Program-made: the position numbers and the translations under genes
NCBI GenBank assembly: GCA_027001995.1
Contig: JALTLO010000088.1
Coordinates: 1 to 61,266 of the forward strand
DNA from: Planctomycetota bacterium
GTDB lineage: Bacteria > Planctomycetota > GCA-002687715 > DRQF01
DNA: 61,266 bases
Reading direction: 5' to 3'
Part shown: positions 39,609-58,132 of the stretch, in pieces
How positions within the stretch are numbered: the first letter of the stretch is position 1
Layout of the letters: every line of letters begins with the position of its first letter
The notes under the pieces: generated by a model
The model's input: the letters and a program-made list of their open reading frames with translations, nothing else
What the model was told of the DNA's origin: nothing
Databases searched by the model: none

Positions 39609-41957
39609 CTATTCTCCGAAGAACTTGCCAATAACAGACTTCAAAACGTCTGGTTTGATGGGTTTGGGGACGTATTCGTCCATTCCCGCATCGATGCAAA
39701 TCTCCCGGTCGCCCTTCATGGCATTGGCGGTGACAGCCACGATGGGGGTCTCAATGCCCTTTTCCCGCAAAGCGTGGGTGGCATCCAGTCCCCCCATGAC
39801 GGGCATCTGCAAGTCCATGAGGATCATGTCGAAATCATCATCACTGTTTGCCATTTCCAATGCGATGGCGCCGTTTTCTGCCAGGGCGGTTTCGAATCCC
39901 CATTTCTTCAGCATACTGAGAATGAGCTTTTGGTTGATCGCGTTGTCTTCCACGACCAAGACTCTTCCATGTGTAGCACCAGAGGAATCAGATTGAGAAA
40001 CTTCGACTTCTACCACAGGTTCGTCCTTTCCATTCTTTTGATTGAATGACTGCAAGAGCAGATTGTAGAGTTCAGAGGCTTTAAAGGGCCTGAGCAGGTG
40101 CATGTCGGCACGGTCAACGGAACGTCCGCCACCCAATTGTCCGCCGATGGTGATGATGTCAATCGCCAAAGATTTCAATTGTCTGAGAGCTTCCAGCATG
40201 GATGCAACAATGTCTTCGTCCATGTCCAAGTCGATGATGACCGTTCGGCACTTTATGCTTGAAGACGAACTGGTTTGAAGAATGTCAGTGAGTTCCTCTG
40301 CCGTGGTGATGATCTGAGGTGTCAAATCCCAAGATTTGAGGAGCTCTTGGAGGTTGTTTGCCTCGGTTTGGTCTGTGATGGCTGCCAGGATTGGCATGCC
40401 AGAAATTTCCATCGACTTCGTACCGTTGGCACCATCGGACTCACTGGCCCTTTCTAACTTGGCTGTGAAGTGGAATGTGCTTCCCTTTCCCGGGGTGCTT
40501 TCGGCCCAAATGCGGCCATCCATCAGATTGACCAGTTGTTTTGAAATCGCCAGCCCCAACCCGGTTCCGCCGTATTGTCTTGTTGTTGAACCGTCGGCCT
40601 GAATGAAAGGAGAGAAGATCGTTTCCAACTGGTCTTGAGCGATGCCAATACCGCTGTCGTGGACCTTGAAATGAAGCTCCACTTCACCCTTATTCTCCGA
40701 CACCAAGTCTACTTCGGTGTTGACGGATCCTTCGTCTGTAAACTTAATTGCGTTGCCGATCAAGTTGATGAGGATTTGTCGTAGTTTGGCCGAGTCTCCC
40801 CGAACGATTGAAGGGATTCTGGGATCTGATCGGCAGATCATACGCACATCTTTGGCGTTGGCGGAATGAGCCAAGACGCGGGCCGTATCGCAGACATGGT
40901 CGTGCACGCTAAACTCGTGAATATCGAGTTCCATACGGCCAGCTTCGATTTTCGAGAAGTCAAGAATGTCATTGATGATGACAAGGAGAGCTTCTGCCGA
41001 AGAGTCGACAATGTTCAAAAACTCCTTCTGCTCCTCATCCAAATCCGTATCGAGAGCCAACTCTGTCATGCCAATGATACCATTGAGTGGTGTGCGGATT
41101 TCGTGGCTCATGTTGGCCAGAAATTCGGATTTCGCTCGGGTGCCTTCTTCTGCACGCTCTTTGGCACGAATCAGATTCTTGTTGAGATTGACCAACTCGT
41201 GAGTCCGATCTTTGACCTCGTTCTCTAGGTTGTCACGGTGGGTTGCAAGTTCTTCGTCGCGCTGTTGTACCCGGGCAAGCATGACGTTGAATAGTTCAAC
41301 CAAGCGCCCAATTTCGTCATTGCTCAGTTTCTTTGCCCGAAGAGAATAATCTTTCCCTTCGGATATTTTGCTCGCAACGTTCGAGAGGCTGGCAATCGGA
41401 TCAGTAATGATCCTTTGGATCCTCATGGCCAGCAGATAGGTCAATCCAAGGATGGTCGCGATCAGGAGCAGGGCCATTTGAATGAGCCGAGCGCGTAATT
41501 CCATTTCGTCGGTGCGATCGCTTCGAAGCACGACACTTCCAATACGTTCCCCATCCAGAGCGATATGTTGCAGAACTACAACGGTCTTCTTTTCGACAGT
41601 GTAGTCGGGGACTTGGTCGAGAGCCGGAATCCAGGGGGATTTGGTTGGTGTCCGTGAATAGCGAGCAAAGATCTTGCCGTCTAAATCGTAGATGATGCAG
41701 TCGGTTACATGATCCTGGTTATGAAGCAATTCTAAGCTATTTGTTGCATCTTGTTGGCTGTCGAATTGAAGGGGTGCTTTGACGTTGGCAGCTATGATTT
41801 TAGCAATGGTCTTGACTTGATCGATCTTGTTGGACCGCAACATGCGTGTGTTTGCCAAGAATAGCCCACCGCAGGCGAGCACCAGAACGAGTGCACTGGA
41901 GGACATGATGACCCAAGTCATCTTGGCGCGGATTGACATGTCGCGGAATTTGGTCAC
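39609..41957 (-). CDS. Hybrid sensor histidine kinase (periplasmic CHASE-like sensor, HAMP, HisKA, HATPase, degenerate REC, REC)
   Basis: [37 protein letters not shown]...MDLQMP...KP. Confidence 0.95.
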
Positions 41958-41958
41958 T

Positions 41959-42582
41959 CTACTTCTTCTTGCTCTTCTTCACTACACGAGAAGCCATCTT
42001 GAGGATTTGGCTTGACACTTTGAGCTTGGCCTTTTTGATCGATTCTGTGTTCACTTCGAACTTCAATTTGTTCTTTCGGATCAGGAGACTGATCATCCCA
42101 GATTGATCAACGAACTTGTCTTTTTCTCCAACAATGAGGATAGAGTCCCTGTGACCTCGCCTGATCACTTGCTCTACCTCTGCTTGGGTGAGAGAACGAC
42201 TCACGAAGAGCACTTGTGTTTTCTTGATATCGACAACTTTGCTGAATCGTTTGATGACAATTTTTCGACCTTTTATTGGTTTGAGCTTGGTCAGTGCGTC
42301 GATCTCCCGCCCGAATGGATCTTTACCCACGATGCCGATGGTTAATGTCTTGGATTTCTTAGGCAGATTGGATGTGGGCCAATTCACCCAGCGGACTAGG
42401 CGATAAAGGAACACTGCTTTGAATCGATATTCCGAGCTTGATGACGTTGAATCTTCGGGGGCAGTTTCTGGTGCCTTAAAGTCCCCACGCCCGGTTGCAT
42501 GGCCGCCAACAGTGAGCACGAAGGTGCACAGGAGGATCAATCCTCCAACCTTCATCCTTGTTGTTAGCGGATTGTTAATCAT
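41959..42582 (-). CDS. YfiR/HmsC (DUF4154) family periplasmic protein
   Basis: EY..KA.FLY....WV.WP, IGIVG.DPF, FEVN......LKVSS.IL. Confidence 0.88.
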
Positions 42583-44663
42583 TAGAAAGTGAAGTCCATC
42601 CAGAAGTAGGCGGTCCGTTCGACTTCGCTACCTCGGCGACCAAAGGTGTCGCTGAATTCGGGGTGACGGTCATCTAAGAGGTTGCGTACACCGATGGCAA
42701 GCTCTAGGTTGTCTAGAACACGCCAACGCAACTGTAGGTCGAGCCGCAAGTAATTGGGGATATCAAAGCGGCGAATTTTGTCAGTCCAGTAGACGGTGGT
42801 GTTAAATTCTAGGTCGGAAGTGATATCCCAGTTGGCTCTGAAGACAATGCGATGACTTGGGGAAGAATCTTCCGCTCCGTCGAAATTCGGATCGGTGGAG
42901 CCAACGCTCTTTATGTCGATGGCGATGAAGCTATAGCTAGCTGAAACACGGAGGTCTTTGAGTGGGCGCCATTCAGACGACAGTTCGAGACCGTAGGACC
43001 TCCCTTTGGCTTTGTTATCACGAATCGATTCAAGGAAGGGCAGTCCTCCGGAAATGTTGAGGCCCCGTAGGTCCGTGGTGGCGATGCGTTCGTAGTCGTT
43101 ATAAAACAGGGCCAAATCGAAGGACAAATTGTCAGCGGGCCTTATTCGGTAGCCCAACTCAAAGGCTAAGAGTTCTGTTGATTTCGTGAATCTGCTGGGG
43201 ATGACTGCGGGGATGACCGGACTACCTCCAATATTCACTGGGGATAGGTTGATGGTCAAGTCTTGGAGCGCTCTCGAAGGGGTTTCCACTGCACGGGAGG
43301 CTGAGACCCAGACGGTGTGCTCAGGTGCGGGGGTCCAGATCATTTTGATACTGGGCTGGACCTCAAAGCCACTGAAGTCATTGTGGGACACTTTGCTGCC
43401 AATGATCAGCTTGAGTTCGTCGTCGACCAGAGTGATTTCATCCTGGAGAAAAGCATTGAAGATCTGGTATCTACGAGCATCAGGACTGGCGAAGAGTTGG
43501 GCTCCGCCCTCAAGATCATCGCTAATGTAGCGGTAGCCAACACCCCAGATGAAGTTGTGAGAGTCACCCAATTGGAAACGATGCTGAAATTCGAGATCGT
43601 AGGTGTTGCGAACATCTTTGAAGAGCCCATCGGTTCGTTCAGTGCGGTCAACGTAGATCTGTAAGGTGAAGTCTTGCTCTTCTGAGATCTTGCGATTCCA
43701 GCGGGCGATCATGTTGGCACCAGCGATGTCAATGGTGTCATTGAGGACAGAGGCAAGTGTTGGGGAGTTGGGGTTAAATATGTCGATTGTCTGTTCGGCT
43801 CGCCCATCGTAGGCATCGCCTTGAACAGTCAGTGTGTCGCGGCTTGAGAGATCCACGTCGAGGCGAAATCCGATTTGCCCCAAATCCCAGTCGGCGTTGG
43901 TATCGTTATTCTGAGCGTTGACGAAATCGTCACGGTCAAACCATTGCCCATAGACCCGTAGGTGGGCATCTTCGCCTAAGGCAGTTCCGTAACTCGAATA
44001 CCCTTCAATATTGTTGCTGCCGAGAACGACTTTGGCTCGTCCCCCAAGGGCATCTTTTGCTTTCTTGGTGATGATATTGATGATGCCGTTCACGGCGTTG
44101 GCACCCCAAAGAGTGGCCCCAGGTCCGCGAATAACCTCGATGCGTTCGATGTTTTCTACTGGAGTCGATTGTTGGTTCCAAAAAGTACCTGAGAACAAAG
44201 GGGTATACATGGTGCGGCCGTCCATGAGGACGAGCATTTTGCTGGCAAAGACACTATTGAACCCACGGGAGGTGATGGCCCAACGGTGGCGGTTGATTTG
44301 GGCAACTTCGATGCCTGGGACGAGCCTGAGGGCTTCTGGGATGGAACGAGCTCCAGCTCTTTGAATGTCATCTTGGGTGACAACAAAGATAGCCGATGCA
44401 GCTTTCGAAAGGGGTTGGGCCGACTTAGAAACTGAGGTGACTTCCATATCGAGGAGGTCTTCCAAGCTGAAATCACTCAGCTCTTCTACGTCTTCCTGGG
44501 TTGCTTCGTCCACTTCATCTGTTTCTTCTTGAGCGTGGCTCGGGGAAGAAAACAACAAAAGGATGAGCGCGGCGGAGAGGCAGGTCCAGATAAGGCCTTG
44601 CAACGGCTGTTGCCCGGTGGCAAGCTCGTGCTCTTTGTGCATGATATGTTTCCTTAGGATCAT
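42582..44663 (-). CDS. TonB-dependent receptor
   Basis: LEDLLDMEVTSVSK plug, IERIEVIRGPGATLWGANAVNGIINIITK, NLLD, C-terminal F. Confidence 0.93.
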   Translation of the reverse strand: MILRKHIMHKEHELATGQQPLQGLIWTCLSAALILLLFSSPSHAQEETDEVDEATQEDVEELSDFSLEDLLDMEVTSVSKSAQPLSKAASAIFVVTQDDIQRAGARSIPEALRLVPGIEVAQINRHRWAITSRGFNSVFASKMLVLMDGRTMYTPLFSGTFWNQQSTPVENIERIEVIRGPGATLWGANAVNGIINIITKKAKDALGGRAKVVLGSNNIEGYSSYGTALGEDAHLRVYGQWFDRDDFVNAQNNDTNADWDLGQIGFRLDVDLSSRDTLTVQGDAYDGRAEQTIDIFNPNSPTLASVLNDTIDIAGANMIARWNRKISEEQDFTLQIYVDRTERTDGLFKDVRNTYDLEFQHRFQLGDSHNFIWGVGYRYISDDLEGGAQLFASPDARRYQIFNAFLQDEITLVDDELKLIIGSKVSHNDFSGFEVQPSIKMIWTPAPEHTVWVSASRAVETPSRALQDLTINLSPVNIGGSPVIPAVIPSRFTKSTELLAFELGYRIRPADNLSFDLALFYNDYERIATTDLRGLNISGGLPFLESIRDNKAKGRSYGLELSSEWRPLKDLRVSASYSFIAIDIKSVGSTDPNFDGAEDSSPSHRIVFRANWDITSDLEFNTTVYWTDKIRRFDIPNYLRLDLQLRWRVLDNLELAIGVRNLLDDRHPEFSDTFGRRGSEVERTAYFWMDFTF

Positions 44664-50787: not shown

Positions 50788-52629
50788 TTAGAAGTTGATG
50801 AAAGTCGGGTTGGAAATGTAGTAATTGCCGATTCCGAGTTCGTTGGTGTAATAGCCATACATCTGGAAGACTGCGGTAAAGCCAGCGCCAGCGAGGCCTT
50901 GATTGCCACCGAATGTAATGATGTTGATGCCGGTGGAATTGGTAACCAAGGCTGGGACATAGTCGCCAATGAGTCCGGTGCTGGAAACCGCGCCGAAGTC
51001 GATGCCTGGATTCAAGATGCTTGTATGGATCGAGCCCCAAGGAGTTGGAATAGGAGTCTGGGGAGCATCGTAAGCCAAAGTTAGCAGCATGCCTGGTCGC
51101 TCTGTTTCTGTGAAGAACAAGAGGTTGCCAGTTGATGGGGTCCAGAATGTGCGGAATCGACGGGTGAATACAGTGAACTCGGCCTTTTCACCAGAGCCCA
51201 AGAGTTCAGCCTGGAAAATCGTTTCTCCAGGGGTGGTTGCGCCTCGGGCTAAGTGGCTTGCGAAACCATTGGAATCGGTCAAGACTACGCTACTTCCAGG
51301 AAGAAATGCGTTGCCTGAGAGTTTGGTGAATGCAACCGCACCACCTGAAACCGGGGCTCCTGAACCGTCAAGAACTCGCACTTGCAGGAGTTGAGGGAAG
51401 TCTTCATTTGTGTTGGCACCCTGGTAGTTACCAGCGGTGACTGCCATGCTACCTTTTGGTGCCAAGTTGAATGTTACATCCGTTGGCGTTCCAGGCTTGA
51501 AGAGAATGAGTTTGGCAGCCAGAGCTCCGCTAGCGGCTATGTCACTTTCGAAATGGAAGCTAAACATGTTGCCCCAACGAATCGCGTTGGCATTGGTGTC
51601 TGTGGCAAAGTCAACTCCAGACCAAATGATCTTGTTGTTGACGTTGTCGACGGTAGAAGTCCAGTCGGTGCCATCAAATGGTTCACCACTGTGGTAGTCC
51701 ACATCATGGAATTGAACGTTGGTGATGTTCGCCCCGGCAGGGAATTCGATTTCGAATCCGTTGGCTGAACGATCTGAGTTGATGTTCTGGATGGAAACAT
51801 CAAAACGATAACCGCCTCCAACCATGGAAGCAGAACGAATGCCAGCCCAGAAACGTCCTTCGCCGGGGACGTCGACAGGAATGACGTTAACGGCGGAGTC
51901 TAAGGCCTCCCAAGCCTCCAGTGCTGCTTGCTGCCGGTGGGTAGGCTCACCGCTGATGAGCGACATGTTATAGTCGCCACCAGAAGCCGAAACGGAAACG
52001 CGCCGCCAGGAAACACTGTCGGCGCCATTGCCACCTTGAGCTTCGTCCTGGGAAACGTACTGACCTTCAACAATATAAATGGCGCCGCCGTTTTGTGCTG
52101 GATCCAAATCTGAGGTCTTAACTTGAAGACGCTTGTAGATGCTGTTTCCCGTCATACCTTGTCCGGTGAAAGGATAAGGATAGACACCATTGAAGGCGTT
52201 CACCTCAAACTTAGGACCGAGGCCAGATTGTTGTCCGTTCAGTCCGGAGCTGTATGGGTCTGAGCAACCAACGGCCAGGTAGGTTCCGTCAGAAGGAGTG
52301 GGGCAGTTATCGCAGAGGGTTTGGCTCAAAGCGAAGAATCCATGCTTCAGCCATGATTGGCCGATTTGCTCGAAACGGCCATCCTTCATGCGAAAAGCAT
52401 GTTGACCAATAACCGGATGAAGATTGTTTCCGGCGATCCAAGAGAGGTTTGCGTCGCCGACATTACATGAGGTCGTCCCGACAGAGAAGGCGTCAATACC
52501 ACCGCTGACAGTGAAGTTAGAGATGCCGTTGAGATCGCCAACGATCACATTTGGACTTTGGGCATTGAGGTCGGCGGCAAGCAGACCAAAAAAGATACAG
52601 CAAATGGCTGCGATGGAAACAAATTTCAT
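50788..52629 (-). CDS. Secreted multidomain hypothetical protein (Cys-containing N-domain, Ig-like Big_1 domain, C-terminal beta domain)
   Basis: Signal peptide; V.D.SG.PV.G..V.F...TD.NG.A Ig-like motif; GAGGAG RBS. Confidence 0.8.
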   Translation of the reverse strand: MKFVSIAAICCIFFGLLAADLNAQSPNVIVGDLNGISNFTVSGGIDAFSVGTTSCNVGDANLSWIAGNNLHPVIGQHAFRMKDGRFEQIGQSWLKHGFFALSQTLCDNCPTPSDGTYLAVGCSDPYSSGLNGQQSGLGPKFEVNAFNGVYPYPFTGQGMTGNSIYKRLQVKTSDLDPAQNGGAIYIVEGQYVSQDEAQGGNGADSVSWRRVSVSASGGDYNMSLISGEPTHRQQAALEAWEALDSAVNVIPVDVPGEGRFWAGIRSASMVGGGYRFDVSIQNINSDRSANGFEIEFPAGANITNVQFHDVDYHSGEPFDGTDWTSTVDNVNNKIIWSGVDFATDTNANAIRWGNMFSFHFESDIAASGALAAKLILFKPGTPTDVTFNLAPKGSMAVTAGNYQGANTNEDFPQLLQVRVLDGSGAPVSGGAVAFTKLSGNAFLPGSSVVLTDSNGFASHLARGATTPGETIFQAELLGSGEKAEFTVFTRRFRTFWTPSTGNLLFFTETERPGMLLTLAYDAPQTPIPTPWGSIHTSILNPGIDFGAVSSTGLIGDYVPALVTNSTGINIITFGGNQGLAGAGFTAVFQMYGYYTNELGIGNYYISNPTFINF

Positions 52630-52820: not shown

Positions 52821-53687
52821 TTACTCATCAGATGTGTGCTTGTTTCGGCAAATTTTGGAGAAAAGGCCGATGCCAGTCCAAACTTGGAACCAAGGCCCAA
52901 CCCTTTGGACCAAAACTTCAAAGTCAACCTGGGGTAGGTCCGCTGCTTTTTCGATGGCTTCCAGCAGGGTGCCGCCGGAATTCAAGGTTTTCAGGATGAG
53001 GTATTGGGCTTCGGAAAGGGGGGCGCGCCAGATCATGTGATCGTTGCGATAGACAAGTAACCAACTTTTCTTGGGAGGAGAGATGTCATGGTGACGATCC
53101 TCGAACTGGGCTTGAATGTATTCGTCTACTTCATGGTCCAAGGCCAAGAGTCTATGAGCCGCGATGAGATCAAGGCTCAGGTCTCCCCAGGCGTCTGGGG
53201 CAATACTTTGGAATTCCGCTGCGGAGATACTTTCCGAGTGAGTTTCGTCGAAGCAGACTTCGGATGCGCGTTCTACCCGGGCAACGTCGATCAGAAACTC
53301 CTGGTGTTTCGTTGGCGGATCCATGGATCGCAGGAACTTCACGAAGTGCTGTCCCAAAGAAGCTAAGTTTGGCGAGGTGGAAGGATACTGGTGAATGTAA
53401 CTTTTCGCGACTTGATAGAATTCGTCCTGTCCTAAGATAAATTGGCAGCAGGGAAAATCACCAGCCAATACATCGATGAGTCGCCAAAAATACATGTCGG
53501 CATAAACCCGGAGTCGATCAGTTGCGTCTAACTCGGGGCCATCCTCTACGATTTCTTGGACGGAATCTGTTGGCCAGATTTTATCGGCCTCTGGGCTGTC
53601 TACTCCGGCTTCGATTCCTTCTGGGTGGGAAACGACTTGAAGCATCCACCGTTCCAATCGCTCGAGGTCTTTGGGCTTGGTGTTCAT
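52821..53687 (-). CDS. DUF2063 family MNIO partner / peptide-recognition protein (BufC/HvfC-like)
   Basis: RL.VY..MY..RL...L..DFP, Y...YPS, G..F..FL, DVAR.E; start overlaps the DUF692 stop (ATGA). Confidence 0.88.
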   Translation of the reverse strand: MNTKPKDLERLERWMLQVVSHPEGIEAGVDSPEADKIWPTDSVQEIVEDGPELDATDRLRVYADMYFWRLIDVLAGDFPCCQFILGQDEFYQVAKSYIHQYPSTSPNLASLGQHFVKFLRSMDPPTKHQEFLIDVARVERASEVCFDETHSESISAAEFQSIAPDAWGDLSLDLIAAHRLLALDHEVDEYIQAQFEDRHHDISPPKKSWLLVYRNDHMIWRAPLSEAQYLILKTLNSGGTLLEAIEKAADLPQVDFEVLVQRVGPWFQVWTGIGLFSKICRNKHTSDE

Positions 53688-54529
53688 TTGTGAGCTGGGT
53701 CCTTGCGAAAACGACGGGCCCTCAAGACCTCTTGGTGGACTTCATCAAAACTCGGGATTTCGTCATCCCACTCCAAGAGTGTTGCGCGGTTGCCCGCCCG
53801 GTCCATGACCCACTTATAGAGCTGCCAGACCTCGTCAATCACGATGCCGTCGTGAGTATCGATGCAGTGGGTGCCTTTGTCTGTATGACCTGCCAAGTGA
53901 ATCTGCACGACCCGATCGAGAGGAATCTTGCTGAGATAATCTTCAGGTTCGAAACCGTGGTTGCGGGCGCTGACGTAGACGTTGTTGACGTCCAGCAAGA
54001 GGGCGCAATCGCTTTCCTCTGCCATCCCTGCGATGAATTCTTCTTCGCTGATGGTATTGCTGGTGAAACTCACATAGGTGGAAGGATTCTCGATGACGAG
54101 GGGCCGCTCTAGGAAGTCTTGCACTTCTTTGATTCGGCTGATGACCCATTTGAGGCTTTCCTCATTGGTTGGCACAGGGTAGAGATCATGACCATTCTTA
54201 CCGGCAACCCCGGTCCAGCATAAGTGGTCACCCATCCACTTCACTTGAAGGTCGTCAGCCAGGGCCTTGAGTTTCTTGAGGTAGTCCCAGTTGAGTGGGT
54301 CTGTGCTTCCAATGGACAAAGAGACACCATGCATCACGATGGGGTAACGCTCGGCGATTTGATCTAAGACGTAGCGGGGCCGCCCCCCGGTTTCCATGAA
54401 ATTCTCTGAGATGATTTCGAACCAGTCGATCTCTGGCCAGGTGTCTAAGATGTGTGGGAAGTGGGTTGTTCTAAGGCCGATCCCTAAGCCTAGGTCAGGA
54501 AGACCCCATTTATTTGGGATGTGCGTCAT
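53684..54529 (-). CDS. DUF692 multinuclear non-heme iron oxidative enzyme (MNIO; BufB/HvfB/MbnB family)
   Basis: G.GLR..H, EIISENFM, HGVSLSIG, DHLCW, ENPSTY, DVNNVYVS, HLAGH, IDTH, LEWD. Confidence 0.95.
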   Translation of the reverse strand: MTHIPNKWGLPDLGLGIGLRTTHFPHILDTWPEIDWFEIISENFMETGGRPRYVLDQIAERYPIVMHGVSLSIGSTDPLNWDYLKKLKALADDLQVKWMGDHLCWTGVAGKNGHDLYPVPTNEESLKWVISRIKEVQDFLERPLVIENPSTYVSFTSNTISEEEFIAGMAEESDCALLLDVNNVYVSARNHGFEPEDYLSKIPLDRVVQIHLAGHTDKGTHCIDTHDGIVIDEVWQLYKWVMDRAGNRATLLEWDDEIPSFDEVHQEVLRARRFRKDPAHK

Positions 54530-54551
54530 GATGGAGTACCGCAAGAGACAA

Positions 54552-54589
54552 CTGTGTCAGTGCCCCCATCCAGGGAGGCACGGACACAG
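54552..54589. other. Intergenic stem-loop between precursor 2 and the MNIO gene
   Basis: CTGTGTC..GTGCC...GGCAC.GACACAG imperfect inverted repeat; no clean U-tract. Confidence 0.6.
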
Positions 54590-54603
54590 CTTACTGTTTC
54601 AGA

Positions 54604-55023
54604 TCAGTGAGTGATAGGGACGCCGCAGCCACCCTTGCCTTTGCAGGAGTTTTTCCCTTTGCAACCGTTGTCGCCAGATCCGCAACCGCCTAAGCCTTTG
54701 CAGGTGTTTTGGCCTTTGCATGAGTGGGGCTTGACCGTGGCGCAGCCGCCTTTACCTTTACAGGTGTTTTTTCCGGCACAACCGGCATCACCGGCTTTGC
54801 ACCCACCCTTGCCCTTGCACGAGTTTCTTGTCTTACAGGCATGTTTCTCTAAGCCCATTTCCCATGGGCTTTTCTTGGCGGCACCACCGGCGCTTGGCTT
54901 GCTGCTTGGGGAATTTTCCGCGCCAGCTTCTTCTTTACCTTTGCAGCCCAGGGTTGCACCCGCAAGAATTCCACCAGTTGCAGCCAAAAGAGCGCGGTTA
55001 AAGTCCCGTCGTTTCATGCCCAT
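54604..55023 (-). CDS. Cys-rich RiPP precursor 2 (bufferin BufA2-like repeats) with Tat + lipoprotein signal
   Basis: MKRRDFN, hydrophobic stretch, TLG-C; four C-x3-N-x-CKG-x-GGC repeats (12 core Cys). Confidence 0.85.
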   Translation of the reverse strand: MGMKRRDFNRALLAATGGILAGATLGCKGKEEAGAENSPSSKPSAGGAAKKSPWEMGLEKHACKTRNSCKGKGGCKAGDAGCAGKNTCKGKGGCATVKPHSCKGQNTCKGLGGCGSGDNGCKGKNSCKGKGGCGVPITH

Positions 55024-55125
55024 CAGATTTCTCCAGAATTAAAAATGACTCCATGGCATCACCAAGATTTGGCAATCCCCTTGAGTCAGGATATTGGTCA
55101 GTTTCGAATTGTTTTACTTCGAATC

Positions 55126-55159
55126 AAAATAAAAGCCCCGACCGTGGGTGATCGGGGCT
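55126..55159 (-). terminator. Rho-independent terminator after precursor 1
   Basis: Minus strand AGCCCCGA...TCGGGGCT followed by TTTATTTT. Confidence 0.8.
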
Positions 55160-55170
55160 CTCAGGCAGAA

Positions 55171-55485
55171 CTACTTGCTCTTGCAGGAGCCGTTAGCCTT
55201 GCAGGAACCCTTGGCTTTGCAGCTTCCGTTGCTCTTGCAGGATGCCTTGCCCCCGACGACTTTGCAGCCCCCTTGGCCTTTGCAGGCATTCTTGCCGGCG
55301 CAGCTGTTGGCGTCGGTCTTGCAGCCGCCTTGACCCTTGCATGCGTTCTTGCCCTTGCAAGCATGGGAAGCACCACTGGCTGATCCACCGTTATCGCTAG
55401 AGCTGCAGCCCATTGTTGTCCCTGCGACGATGCCACCAACGGCGGCCAAAAGTGCTTTATTAAAATCGCGACGTTTCAAACTCAT
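55171..55485 (-). CDS. Cys-rich RiPP precursor 1 with Tat + lipoprotein signal
   Basis: LKRRDFNK, TMG-C; two C-x-GKNACKGQGGC repeats, then CKSNGS-CKAKGS-CKANGS-CKSK (10 core Cys); AGAGGA RBS. Confidence 0.85.
   Translation of the reverse strand: MSLKRRDFNKALLAAVGGIVAGTTMGCSSSDNGGSASGASHACKGKNACKGQGGCKTDANSCAGKNACKGQGGCKVVGGKASCKSNGSCKAKGSCKANGSCKSK
55181..55246 (-). repeat. Imperfect 18-bp tandem repeat encoding the CKxxGS hexapeptides
   Basis: TTGCAG recurs every 18 nt (55181, 55199, 55217, 55235). Confidence 0.7.
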
Positions 55486-55726
55486 ATCAATCCTCTAATT
55501 CTCTAACTCTCTGTAATCGACCTGGTTGGGGAGACGGAGCGCTCCTCACCAAGACCGGCAAATCCAAGTTTTGCCTTTTTACAACTAAAAGCTAAGAAAA
55601 GTAAGTCTATGATTTTTGCCAATTTTCTAAGAAAGCTTAAAAAAGTGAGTTGCTGCGACTCTCGAGACACGTTTCATTCTCTTGAAGCGTGGCCCTTCTT
55701 GCCAATTCCGGTTTGACAATCCCCAT

Positions 55727-58132
55727 TTAGACGGCGGCATTCCCTTCTAAGAGTGGTTTTCGCCGGCGATTCGACTTTCTTGGGCTCAAGGCCAAGTCGA
55801 TGACTTGGTGTACGTGTTTGACGAAGTGAAATTTCAAACCCTCACGGATGTGCTCAGCCATTTCATCCACGTCGGCCTTGTTGGCATCTGGCAAGATGAT
55901 CTCTTTGATGCCGGCCCGTTTTGCTGCCAGCACCTTTTCGTTGATACCCCCCACAGGCATGACTAAACCTCGGAGACTGATTTCTCCGGTCATGGCGATG
56001 TTCTTATTGACCGGGCGACCGGTCAACATGGAGACCAAGGCGCTCAAGATGGAGACACCAGCGGAAGGGCCGTCTTTGGGAACGGCGGCCGCAGGAAAAT
56101 GGATATGAATGTCGATCTTCTCTAAGAATCCATCCTCTAATCCTAGGACTTTCGCGTCGGCCTTAATGATGCTCATGGCAGCCTGAGCCGACTCCTGCAT
56201 GACATCCCCCAAGCGCCCAGTCAACTTCAGTCGTCCTTTGCCCGGCATTTGAGTTGCTTCGATGAACAAAATCTCACCACCAAAAGGGGTCCATGCTAAG
56301 CCAGTGGCAACACCAGGAACAGAAACACGGTTGGCCACCTCTGAGGTGAATCTCTTCTTACCCAAGAAGGTGTTGAGATCCTTTTGCTTGACAACTTGCT
56401 TTTTCGTTTCGCCCTCAACGATTCTGCGAGCAGCGATGCGTAAAATGGCTGCGATCCTCCGCCCAAGTTCTCGGACACCGGCTTCTAAGGTGTAGTTCTC
56501 AATGATGGCTTTGAGGGTGGCTGTCCCCATGCCGATTTGGGACTTCTTCAACCCGTGGTCTTTGAGGAGTTGAGGCAAGAGGTGTTTCTCGGCGATTTTT
56601 ACTTTGTCGTGGGTGGCGTAGCCAGGGATTCGGATGACTTCCATGCGGTCCTTGAGGGGGCCGGGGATGCGATCGTCCCAGTTTGCCGTGGCGATGAACA
56701 TGACCTTGGAAAGATCAAAATCTTGTTCCAAGTAGTTGTCAGAGAAGGCGGAATTCTGTTCTGGGTCCAAGACTTCTAGAAGTGCAGAGCTGGGATCGCC
56801 TCCGTGGTCTTTGCCCAATTTGTCGATTTCGTCGAGCATAAACACAGGGTTGTTGGTTCCTGCCTTCTTGAGGGCCTGCATGATACGCCCAGGAAGGGCA
56901 CCGACGTAAGTACGTCTGTGCCCACGAATCTCAGCTTCATCCCGCACGCCCCCTAAGGACATGCGAATGAACTTCCGCCCCATGGCCTCAGCGATGGATT
57001 TTCCGAGGGAGGTCTTGCCAACTCCTGGGGGGCCAACAAAACAAAGGATAGGACCACGCATGTCTTGTTTGAGCTGCCGAACAGCCAAGAACTCCAGAAT
57101 CCTGTCTTTCACCTTGTCCAAGCTGTGATGGTCCCGATCAAGAATGTCCCGAGACTTCTTGAGGTCCAAGATGTCTTCACTGGTCTTGTTCCATGGCAGA
57201 TCGAGAATCCAATCGATCCAGGTTCGCGTGACATTCCAATCAGGAGAGGAAGGGTTGATTCGACCCAAGCGCTTAAGCTCTTTCTTAGCGGCCTTGTCCA
57301 CAGCTTCTGGAAGCTGGGCTTCTTCGATTTTGGCAGCTAATTCGCCGAGGTCGTTGTCATCCGAAGACTCTCCTAACTCTTCCCGAATGGCCTCCATTTG
57401 TTGGCGCAAATAGAATTCTTTTTGGTTGCGCGTGATCTCGCTTTGAACTTGATCTTGGATTTTGGAGGAGAGTTTCATGACCTCAAGCTCTCGGACCAGA
57501 ATCTTATGGGTTTCCGTGAGCCTCTCTGTGACGTCAGCGGTGTTCAGGAGATCTTGCCGTTCTTCCAAGTCGATGGACAGGGAGGCTCCGATGAGGTCGG
57601 CCAACCCCCCAGGGGACTCGGCGTTGTGGGCCATCACCAAGTGCTCTTCTGTGAGATGCGGGACGAGTTCTGCCAACTCAGAAAACGACATCTCCAAATT
57701 CTTATTGAGAGCTTCGATCTCGACGGAACTTTCTTCAGCTTCCGGAAGAACCCGGCCTTCCGCTATCAGGGGCTTTTCCGGCTCATCGATGAAAGAATCG
57801 ACCTGAAAGCGGCTGAGACCCTGGACAATGACCGTCATGGAGCCATCTGGGACCCGCAATGTCTTGAGGATTTCGACCTCGCAGCCCACCCTGTAGAGAG
57901 CATCTGCGTCAGGGGATTCCACAGAAGGATCGATTTGGGCAATGACCAAGAGCTTGCCACTCTTTTCTTGGGCTTTTCGCACACCTTGGAGTGAGCGTTC
58001 TCGCCCCACGGTCAGGGGCATTACTTGCCCTGGAAACACCACCAAGTTGCGTAAAGGCAGGACGAAGTGCTCGGTTTGGACCGGAGTGACTTCAACTTCG
58101 GGACTGGTTTTTTCTTCGGTCTCATGACTCAT
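55727..58132 (-). CDS. lon: ATP-dependent protease La
   Basis: LPLRN.V.FP N-domain, GPPGVGKTS, DEIDK, KDGPSAG, EK.LAA. Confidence 0.97.
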   Translation of the reverse strand: MSHETEEKTSPEVEVTPVQTEHFVLPLRNLVVFPGQVMPLTVGRERSLQGVRKAQEKSGKLLVIAQIDPSVESPDADALYRVGCEVEILKTLRVPDGSMTVIVQGLSRFQVDSFIDEPEKPLIAEGRVLPEAEESSVEIEALNKNLEMSFSELAELVPHLTEEHLVMAHNAESPGGLADLIGASLSIDLEERQDLLNTADVTERLTETHKILVRELEVMKLSSKIQDQVQSEITRNQKEFYLRQQMEAIREELGESSDDNDLGELAAKIEEAQLPEAVDKAAKKELKRLGRINPSSPDWNVTRTWIDWILDLPWNKTSEDILDLKKSRDILDRDHHSLDKVKDRILEFLAVRQLKQDMRGPILCFVGPPGVGKTSLGKSIAEAMGRKFIRMSLGGVRDEAEIRGHRRTYVGALPGRIMQALKKAGTNNPVFMLDEIDKLGKDHGGDPSSALLEVLDPEQNSAFSDNYLEQDFDLSKVMFIATANWDDRIPGPLKDRMEVIRIPGYATHDKVKIAEKHLLPQLLKDHGLKKSQIGMGTATLKAIIENYTLEAGVRELGRRIAAILRIAARRIVEGETKKQVVKQKDLNTFLGKKRFTSEVANRVSVPGVATGLAWTPFGGEILFIEATQMPGKGRLKLTGRLGDVMQESAQAAMSIIKADAKVLGLEDGFLEKIDIHIHFPAAAVPKDGPSAGVSILSALVSMLTGRPVNKNIAMTGEISLRGLVMPVGGINEKVLAAKRAGIKEIILPDANKADVDEMAEHIREGLKFHFVKHVHQVIDLALSPRKSNRRRKPLLEGNAAV

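Follow-up and report, generated by a model that had tools for sequence, protein, structure and literature searches.

Two questions are raised by a pair of small, cysteine-rich genes in a planctomycete: to which family of RiPPs (peptides made by the ribosome and modified after translation) do they belong, and by which route would their products leave the cytoplasm? The genes lie on a stretch of 61,266 nucleotides of contig JALTLO010000088.1 (assembly GCA_027001995.1, Planctomycetota bacterium), referred to here as the window. Four co-directional genes on its minus strand, all with intact frames, encode two paralogous precursors, an MNIO of the DUF692 family and its DUF2063 partner; an earlier sequence-only reading of the same DNA had described two small paralogous genes directly upstream of an intact DUF692 enzyme and its partner, and this arrangement is found where it was placed:

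55171..55485, minus strand: bufA-a, precursor 1, an open reading frame (ORF) of 104 residues scoring 32.5 bits against the BufA2 model NF050166
54604..55023, minus strand: bufA-b, precursor 2, an ORF of 139 residues scoring 35.6 bits against NF050166
53684..54544, minus strand: bufB, the MNIO (DUF692), starting at TTG 54544 or ATG 54529 and scoring 353.5 bits against NF050167 and 356.6 bits against PF05114
52821..53687, minus strand: bufC, the DUF2063 partner, scoring 66.5 bits against PF09836, its start overlapping the bufB stop by 4 bases

On balance, we favor an account in which these genes form a Buf2 bufferin cluster whose cysteines would be converted in the cytoplasm to copper-binding 5-thiooxazoles, the products then being exported, probably by the twin-arginine translocation (Tat) pathway, and likely anchored to lipid.

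The locus is very probably a cluster of the Buf2 type (BUF_6/12Cys, or "Cys-Lys captophorin"), as profile comparisons of its genes suggest. The MNIO reaches the NF050167 MNIO_BufB equivalog model (cut-off 310 bits), and the DUF2063 protein exceeds the PF09836 cut-off of 27.2 bits. Comparison with BufA models, which the sequence-only reading had called for, gives a divided answer for the precursors: both match BufA2 significantly (E 7e-8 for precursor 1 and E 8e-9 for precursor 2), and both fall under the 60-bit cut-off that marks membership of NF050166. All 46 relatives that share the RRxF leader motif described below (RR-type relatives) match BufA2, and ten of them reach that cut-off. A scan of one genome per species located at least 549 stretches encoding precursor relatives, of which 80 loci were kept; downstream of the precursor, an MNIO match is present in 75 of the 80 and a DUF2063 match in 70. 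The MNIO of the window also matches a Haemophilus-type structure, PDB 3BWW (E 5e-46), and reads E-W-D-D where that structure reads E-R-D-F, and 54 of 70 related loci likewise have aspartate there. MNIOs acting on Cys-Lys substrates, BufA2 among them, are described as marked by replacement of Phe with Asp at a site of this kind, BufB2-Asp251 (PMC12668002). If the E-W-D-D column is equated with the Asp251/Phe250 site, as we infer, the enzyme would carry the Cys-Lys marker.

Other families of MNIO substrate were considered and set aside. The HvfA/oxazolin type is rejected, as EGKCG repeats are absent and the enzymes score 260.4 bits against HvfB (cut-off 360) and 56.9 bits against HvfC (NF050145, cut-off 142); the bufC product additionally gives a match below cut-off to PF22106 NGO1945_C (18.5 bits), and a PDB search with it returned nothing relevant. 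The methanobactin, TglA and chryseobasin types are likewise rejected, the MNIO lying far below the cut-offs of their models; the ApyH, ChrH and MbnB models all score under cut-off. Chance ORFs are rejected in view of the more than 7000 relatives of precursor 2: 7012 of 8000 scored candidates are related to it at E≤1e-3. The assignment gives a usable annotation for four genes otherwise labeled "hypothetical". Because 53684..54544 is the sole MNIO gene in the genome, a single BufBC pair serving both precursors is the simplest reading, and in this respect the earlier proposal of one enzyme for two scaffolds stands.

The same reading had suggested that the cluster could be an undescribed subclass, whose closest known families would give only soluble periplasmic copper binders. 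The first suggestion falls, since the precursors lie inside the described Buf2/BUF_6/12Cys family. According to a survey of these systems, 90% of Buf2 precursors have six cysteines and the others 12, some precursor genes stand in tandem, and about 16% of Buf2 bufferins carry predicted lipoprotein signals (PMC12452194, Microb Genom 2025). Moreover, a lipidated MNIO-made RiPP has been shown by experiment, and lipidated bufferins and oxazolins are predicted (PMC13056109, PNAS 2026). The second suggestion is therefore outdated.

What distinguishes the locus is its leaders, which the two precursors share:

55405..55485 and 54943..55023, minus strand: leaders of precursors 1 and 2, each with a GxxxG in the hydrophobic (h-) region
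55456..55476, minus strand: twin-arginine-like motif of precursor 1, K4-R5-R6-D7-F8-N9-K10
54994..55014, minus strand: twin-arginine-like motif of precursor 2, K4-R5-R6-D7-F8-N9-R10
55405..55407, minus strand: predicted lipobox Cys27 of precursor 1 (T-M-G-C), the predicted lipidation site, invariant in the alignment
54943..54945, minus strand: predicted lipobox Cys27 of precursor 2 (T-L-G-C), invariant in the alignment

The leaders read MSLKRRDFNKALLAAVGGIVAGTTMGC and MGMKRRDFNRALLAATGGILAGATLGC, that is K-R-R-D-F-N-[KR] followed by 14 uncharged residues and [ML]-G-C. As first noticed from the sequence alone, they are near-identical, with a twin-arginine motif, an h-region and a lipobox cysteine; 20 of 27 residues agree. 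At the DNA level only 57 of 81 bases (70%) match, the codon differences being 12 synonymous and seven non-synonymous, so the likeness has been kept at the protein level and does not stem from a recent DNA copy. R5, R6, D7, F8, N9 and Cys27 are invariant in six aligned precursors, from the window and from the two metagenome-assembled genomes (MAGs) that carry its closest counterparts, loci L002 and L003. A crude scan of the whole 5.2-Mb genome lists 53 N-termini with RRxF and a hydrophobic stretch, six of which have a lipobox-like cysteine, two of these six being the precursors under study; so few such N-termini argue that the leader pattern is not due to chance.

Leaders of this kind recur among the relatives. 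RRxF is present in the leaders of 46 among precursor 2's 120 best relatives, and about 20 of the 46 also possess a lipobox (one, P0076, is a false flag). A lipobox with no RR is seen in a further 44, and the remaining 30 show neither feature. The arginine pair, the phenylalanine and the K/R two residues past it are kept together as a block across these relatives, and RRxF occurs past residue 50 in a single one of them. Precursor relatives (E≤1e-5) are found in 64 of 401 sampled Planctomycetota genomes, and 22 of the 31 precursor ORFs in the 30 best Planctomycetota loci are of the RR type, 19 of the 22 with a lipobox, in a ranking that favors leaders like the query's. About one in three of the sampled relatives, and the majority of those from Planctomycetota, are thus of the RR type. 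We conclude that the twin-arginine motif is real and conserved, but non-canonical.

Does this motif direct the precursors to Tat? We incline towards Tat over Sec as the export route, from the pattern of leader conservation, and with some reserve. A competing reading, which we regard as possible and somewhat improbable, accepts the same Buf2 cluster and takes the precursors for ordinary lipoproteins of the Sec pathway processed by signal peptidase II (Sec/SPII), the arginines forming merely a positive n-region and the RRxF[N/T/G/S]K block having been inherited without Tat function. That RR, F and K/R are conserved jointly across Planctomycetota, Acidobacteriota and Pseudomonadota speaks for Tat, as a plain positive n-region would tolerate lysine or a single arginine. 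The motif also fits four of the five defined positions of the consensus, and the RR state has been kept through an eight-row MNIO clade spanning two phyla (see below). The h-region is slightly less hydrophobic in RR-type relatives (2.03 vs 2.17, Mann–Whitney p 1.4e-5, the relatives not being independent of one another), which is the direction expected for Tat signals.

Other evidence pulls the other way. With the Tat models TIGR01409 and PF10518, neither leader is listed at E≤10, whether whole proteins or 33- or 60-residue N-termini are searched, yet each model lists nine of ten other RRxF leaders of the same genome, four reaching the TIGR01409 cut-off and two that of PF10518. These ten, among them a NapA-like leader, were hand-picked as canonical-looking and so constitute a positive control and not an unbiased sample. 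TIGR01409 is listed for five of the 46 RR-type relatives, none of which reaches its cut-off. The Tat consensus is S/T-R-R-x-F-L-K, with leucine or another hydrophobic residue after the phenylalanine. The position is filled in the 46 RR-type relatives by N (23), T (9), G (7), S (4), A (2) or H (1), that is polar in 44 and alanine in two, which departs from the hydrophobic consensus. Since the residue is canonical in none of the 46, the misses of the Tat models are systematic. The h-region itself appears common to both kinds of leader, a GxxxG being present in 63 of 74 non-RR and 32 of 46 RR leaders, which indicates homology across the types; in several RR-type relatives the signal-peptide part of the BufA2 model aligns to it, so it is not specific to Tat. 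Moreover, 74 of the 120 relatives combine the same core with a non-RR leader, and the core accordingly does not need Tat. Sec export of BufA1 is the only route shown experimentally in the family (PMC11626156), and in PMC12452194 the signals are called Sec after SignalP 6. That the unmodified core is not predicted to fold lends the Sec/SPII reading a further, weak argument.

The presence of the translocase does not discriminate between the two routes. TatC is encoded in 17 of 18 genomes with RR-type leaders and in eight of nine without, hence in 25 of 27 related genomes irrespective of leader, and the two genomes lacking it are 85% and 66% complete. The genome of the window encodes one TatC (226 bits), two TatA, three Lgt and one LspA. 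As a separate observation, its contig C19 (locus L082) encodes a NapA-like molybdopterin oxidoreductase bearing TRRDFMK, a canonical Tat leader; convincing leaders of this kind number only about a dozen in the crude genome scan.

Lipid anchoring is a different matter from the export route. The invariant cysteine that closes the h-region makes it likely that both precursors are lipid-anchored at Cys27; the residue at position −3 of the lipobox is threonine, not leucine, valine or isoleucine, and this atypical feature weighs against a canonical lipobox.

The two routes differ in what they would mean. If the signals are of the Sec/SPII kind, the locus is one more lipoprotein-type Buf2 cluster. 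If the RR leaders do direct export through Tat, a sizeable part of the 12-Cys Buf2 clade exits, after modification, by a route for folded or cofactor-loaded proteins, and this would bear on how export is kept from outrunning modification and on whether the peptides can carry metal out. In its fullest form, which we advance tentatively and consider unlikely as a whole, the Tat reading would make these precursors true Tat/SPII substrates and the first RiPP family exported via Tat: the leader, with its conserved GxxxG h-region, would keep the precursor in the cytoplasm and offer it to BufBC until all four to eight cysteines are converted, perhaps with Cu(I) loaded, only the finished compact peptide would pass Tat proofreading, and it would then be lipid-anchored. 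Such a system would carry copper out of the cytoplasm and buffer copper at the membrane surface.

Bufferins and captophorins rank with the most numerous classes of RiPP, and in the papers searched they are described as Sec-exported. The terms "Tat" and "twin-arginine" are absent from the text of PMC12452194, PMC13056109, PMC11626156 and PMC12668002, and from two supplement files of PMC12452194, one of them covered in part. Literature searches combining bufferin, MNIO, DUF692 or DUF2063 with Tat or twin-arginine returned nothing relevant; for DUF692 or DUF2063, an MNIO term and twin-arginine come together in PMC10304878 alone. As far as searched, a twin-arginine motif in bufferin leaders is thus not in print, and the cluster type, tandem precursors, 12-Cys cores and lipoprotein signals already are. 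The details new here are the leader GxxxG, the terminator between the precursor genes, and a strain in which leader 1 is fused to core 2, the latter two of which are described below.

The GxxxG leads to another explanation of the leader, one that we find doubtful and that is compatible with either export route: the RRDFN block and the A-x-G-G-I-x-A-G h-region would be primarily a RiPP leader recognized by BufC, and an export signal only second. Conservation of the h-region gives this idea its appeal. In 95 of the 120 relatives the 14-residue window of greatest hydrophobicity contains a GxxxG, vs 18 of 566 signal-like N-termini of the same genome, so the h-region is constrained beyond hydrophobicity; G18 and G22 persist in no fewer than 90% of 98 aligned sequences, and the linker behind the lipobox has no consensus. 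The paralogous leaders have retained their 20 common residues at 70% DNA identity, and PMC11626156 leaves open whether leader and signal peptide overlap. According to the same source, however, the BufA1 signal peptide is dispensable for modification on co-expression. The MNIO phylogeny does not split RR from non-RR loci, so there is no co-variation of the RR block with the enzyme, and part of the conservation reflects shared ancestry among relatives that are not independent.

The precursor cores are in keeping with the Buf2 family. Precursor 1 has 11 cysteines, the lipobox Cys27 and ten in the core, and precursor 2 has 13, Cys27 and 12; the core counts of ten and 12 agree with the sequence-only reading, as do its C-x3-N-x-CKG-x-GGC repeats, found twice in precursor 1 and four times in precursor 2. 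The two proteins align end to end (BLASTP E 8e-28). In precursor 1, the 27-residue leader is followed by a short Ser/Gly linker, a single 6-Cys Buf2 module and a tail in which S-C-K-x-x-G is repeated four times; in precursor 2, by an unconserved linker of 31 residues and two 6-Cys Buf2 modules. Across 98 aligned sequences, eight core cysteines of precursor 2 never vary and another three are retained in at least 90%, the surrounding glycine, asparagine and lysine residues likewise. The precursor 1 module retains all six cysteines, together with the leader, in three lineages whose MNIOs are 81–83% identical. Its tail is more variable, as alignment with L002 and L003 reveals:

55171..55245, minus strand: C-terminal tail of precursor 1, made of S-C-K-x-x-G hexapeptide repeats

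There are no copies of the repeat in L002, two in L003 and four in the window, and the tail looks like a fast-evolving run of extra Cys-Lys sites. AlphaFold2, given unmodified precursor 2 and the 98-sequence alignment, predicts no confident fold, with a mean predicted local distance difference test score (pLDDT) of 49.2 and a predicted template modeling score (pTM) of 0.21. A model of such low confidence says nothing on whether the peptide would be exported folded, as the sequence-only reading had it.

In the mechanism that we propose, BufB and BufC would modify both precursors in the cytoplasm. In Caulobacter Buf2, the outer cysteines are unmodified and the central cysteines lose 4 Da each (PMC11626156); by analogy, the four central cysteines of each 6-Cys module may become thiooxazoles and the outer two a disulfide. 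The expected sites would number about four in the precursor 1 module, plus any in its CK-repeat tail, and about eight in precursor 2. The leader would then carry the modified peptide across the membrane, probably by Tat, a routing whose rationale may be that the precursor is held in the cytoplasm until many cysteines are modified. Processing at Cys27 by Lgt and LspA would yield a lipid-anchored, Lys-rich, multivalent copper binder. Work on Caulobacter Buf1 and Buf2 (PMC11626156) suggests that such products may bind Cu(I)/Cu(II) and act as copper buffers outside the cytoplasm. The gene neighborhood counts against a copper role: copper-resistance, DoxX, sigma and anti-sigma genes are all absent from the surveyed 30–61 kb of the window, and the two DoxX genes of the genome are on other contigs.

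To place the cluster and its leader type in evolutionary context, we turn to the enzyme. An IQ-TREE (quick) tree was built from 67 MNIOs, those of the window and of 66 of the 80 loci, the other 14 having been dropped for want of a long MNIO match or a recognized precursor. A single well-supported clade of 19 rows takes in all 12 RR-type loci, alongside seven non-RR 12-Cys loci; the RR state needs at least four changes on the 67 rows, of which well-supported branches force two. The window groups with the two Planctomycetota MAGs of L002 and L003 (support 99), and next with RR-type Pseudomonadota loci (support 98). The well-supported eight-row clade that results (the window, L002, L003, L008, L020, L021 and L022 among it) mixes Planctomycetota and Pseudomonadota MAGs, and seven of its eight rows are RR-type. 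Since the window groups with RR-type Pseudomonadota loci, the cluster seems to have moved between phyla, and to have crossed together with its leader type. An apparent link between the RR leader and at least ten cysteines (raw table 12/15/0/40, Fisher p 3e-6) was discarded as evidence, the RR state being confined to one MNIO clade with only two to four independent pairs.

A sister strain adds a natural rearrangement of the precursors:

54942..55403, no strand: 462-base segment missing from the sister strain, in which a contig of run X3 joins position 54941 to 55404

This contig, from another study than the run that may have given the window, is 10,176 bases long and about 95.6% identical to the window; it skips the 462 bases, and nine letters are common to both sides of the joint. 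Through the loss, leader 1 runs on in frame, at the lipobox cysteine, into the mature part of precursor 2, and protein P0001, encoded on a contig of 69,616 bases, has exactly the same make-up of leader 1 and core 2. As L002 and L003 keep both genes, a deletion is the simplest account of the fusion. The leaders are thereby shown to be interchangeable, leader and core behaving as exchangeable modules, and precursor 1 to be dispensable in the sister strain. That the cluster is a relic, or precursor 1 a decaying duplicate and no substrate, is nevertheless very improbable: the missing precursor 1 core of this strain, the variable tail and a search for RNA runs that listed none are the points in favor of such decay, set against four intact frames, a precursor 1 module that keeps its six cysteines and leader in three lineages, and leader changes of which 12 are synonymous and seven not.

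Two further elements may govern expression of the precursors:

55130..55163, minus strand: hairpin and T-run, a predicted intrinsic terminator or attenuator between the precursor genes, with a 14-pair stem and then TTTTATTTTG
55574..55634, minus strand: conserved upstream block (…GACTTAC…TAGTTGTAAAAA…), a candidate promoter or operator, from an alignment of the window with L003 and partly L002

The hairpin sits directly after the precursor 1 stop. L002 and L003 have one in the corresponding position, and two of the pairs differ on both sides. It would yield more transcript of precursor 1 than of the downstream genes and so may set precursor stoichiometry. A sigma-70 promoter scan gave a single hit, at 55705..55676 (one vs 1.9 expected), no better than shuffles, and no sigma-70 consensus fits the upstream block. 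Shine–Dalgarno-like sequences, AGGA and GGAG, precede the ATG codons of the two precursors.

The cluster is flanked by a Lon protease gene (55727..58132) on one side and by a gene for a secreted protein of 613 residues (50788..52629) on the other. L002 and L003 share the whole arrangement of Lon, precursor 1, precursor 2, MNIO and DUF2063. The secreted protein, encoded on the minus strand after a 192-base gap to bufC, has a weak Big_1 match only, and a counterpart of 615 residues lies in synteny downstream of the cluster in L002. Farther away, about 8 kb downstream of the cluster (39609..44663, minus strand), a TonB-dependent receptor, a protein resembling YfiR/HmsC (DUF4154) and a CHASE8-sensor hybrid histidine kinase are encoded in a row.

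How, then, does this locus compare with known systems? Tat-dependent lipoproteins, with Tat/SPII signals, are known from actinobacteria and haloarchaea. The precursors resemble them in a twin-arginine n-region followed by an h-region that ends in a lipobox cysteine, and differ from them in the polar residue after the phenylalanine and in matching neither TIGR01409 nor PF10518; a RiPP with a Tat/SPII signal is not reported in the literature searched. DybA and its relatives offer a precedent for a lipidated product: there too an MNIO-modified precursor has a lipobox signal, DybA undergoing modification in the cytoplasm before the general lipoprotein pathway lipidates it, but its enzyme is of the ChrH subfamily and produces a macrocycle/hydantoin in place of thiooxazoles, and the signals are SPII (PMC13056109). 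Oxazolin/HvfA, fontiphorin and other "Lys-Cys" captophorins likewise combine an MNIO and a DUF2063 protein on Cys-rich, exported, copper-binding peptides (PMC11252979, PMC12668002). All Lys-Cys captophorins are now assigned 5-thiooxazoles (PMC12668002). They possess EGKCG-type 5-mer repeats and an MNIO phenylalanine, unlike the present enzyme with its aspartate. Within the Buf2 survey itself (PMC12452194), the contrast is with signals called Sec, as opposed to the RRxF-bearing leaders described here.

The closest parallel is bufferin 2 of Caulobacter vibrioides (bufA2-bufB2-bufC2), as described in PMC11626156. The differences concern chiefly the precursors. Here there are two in tandem, one with a single module and a CK-repeat tail and one with a double module; both lie under the 60-bit BufA2 cut-off, and their leaders carry RRxF and a lipobox cysteine in place of a Sec signal cleaved by signal peptidase I. 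For the present cluster, unlike bufferin 2, no link to SigF/NrsF or induction by copper is known. The likenesses extend over the remainder of the system: the order of precursor, MNIO and DUF2063 genes in an operon without DoxX, a BufB at the equivalog cut-off, an N-terminal export signal ahead of a Cys-Lys-rich 6-Cys module, and, within that module, the predicted 5-thiooxazoles on the central cysteines and disulfide between the outer ones.

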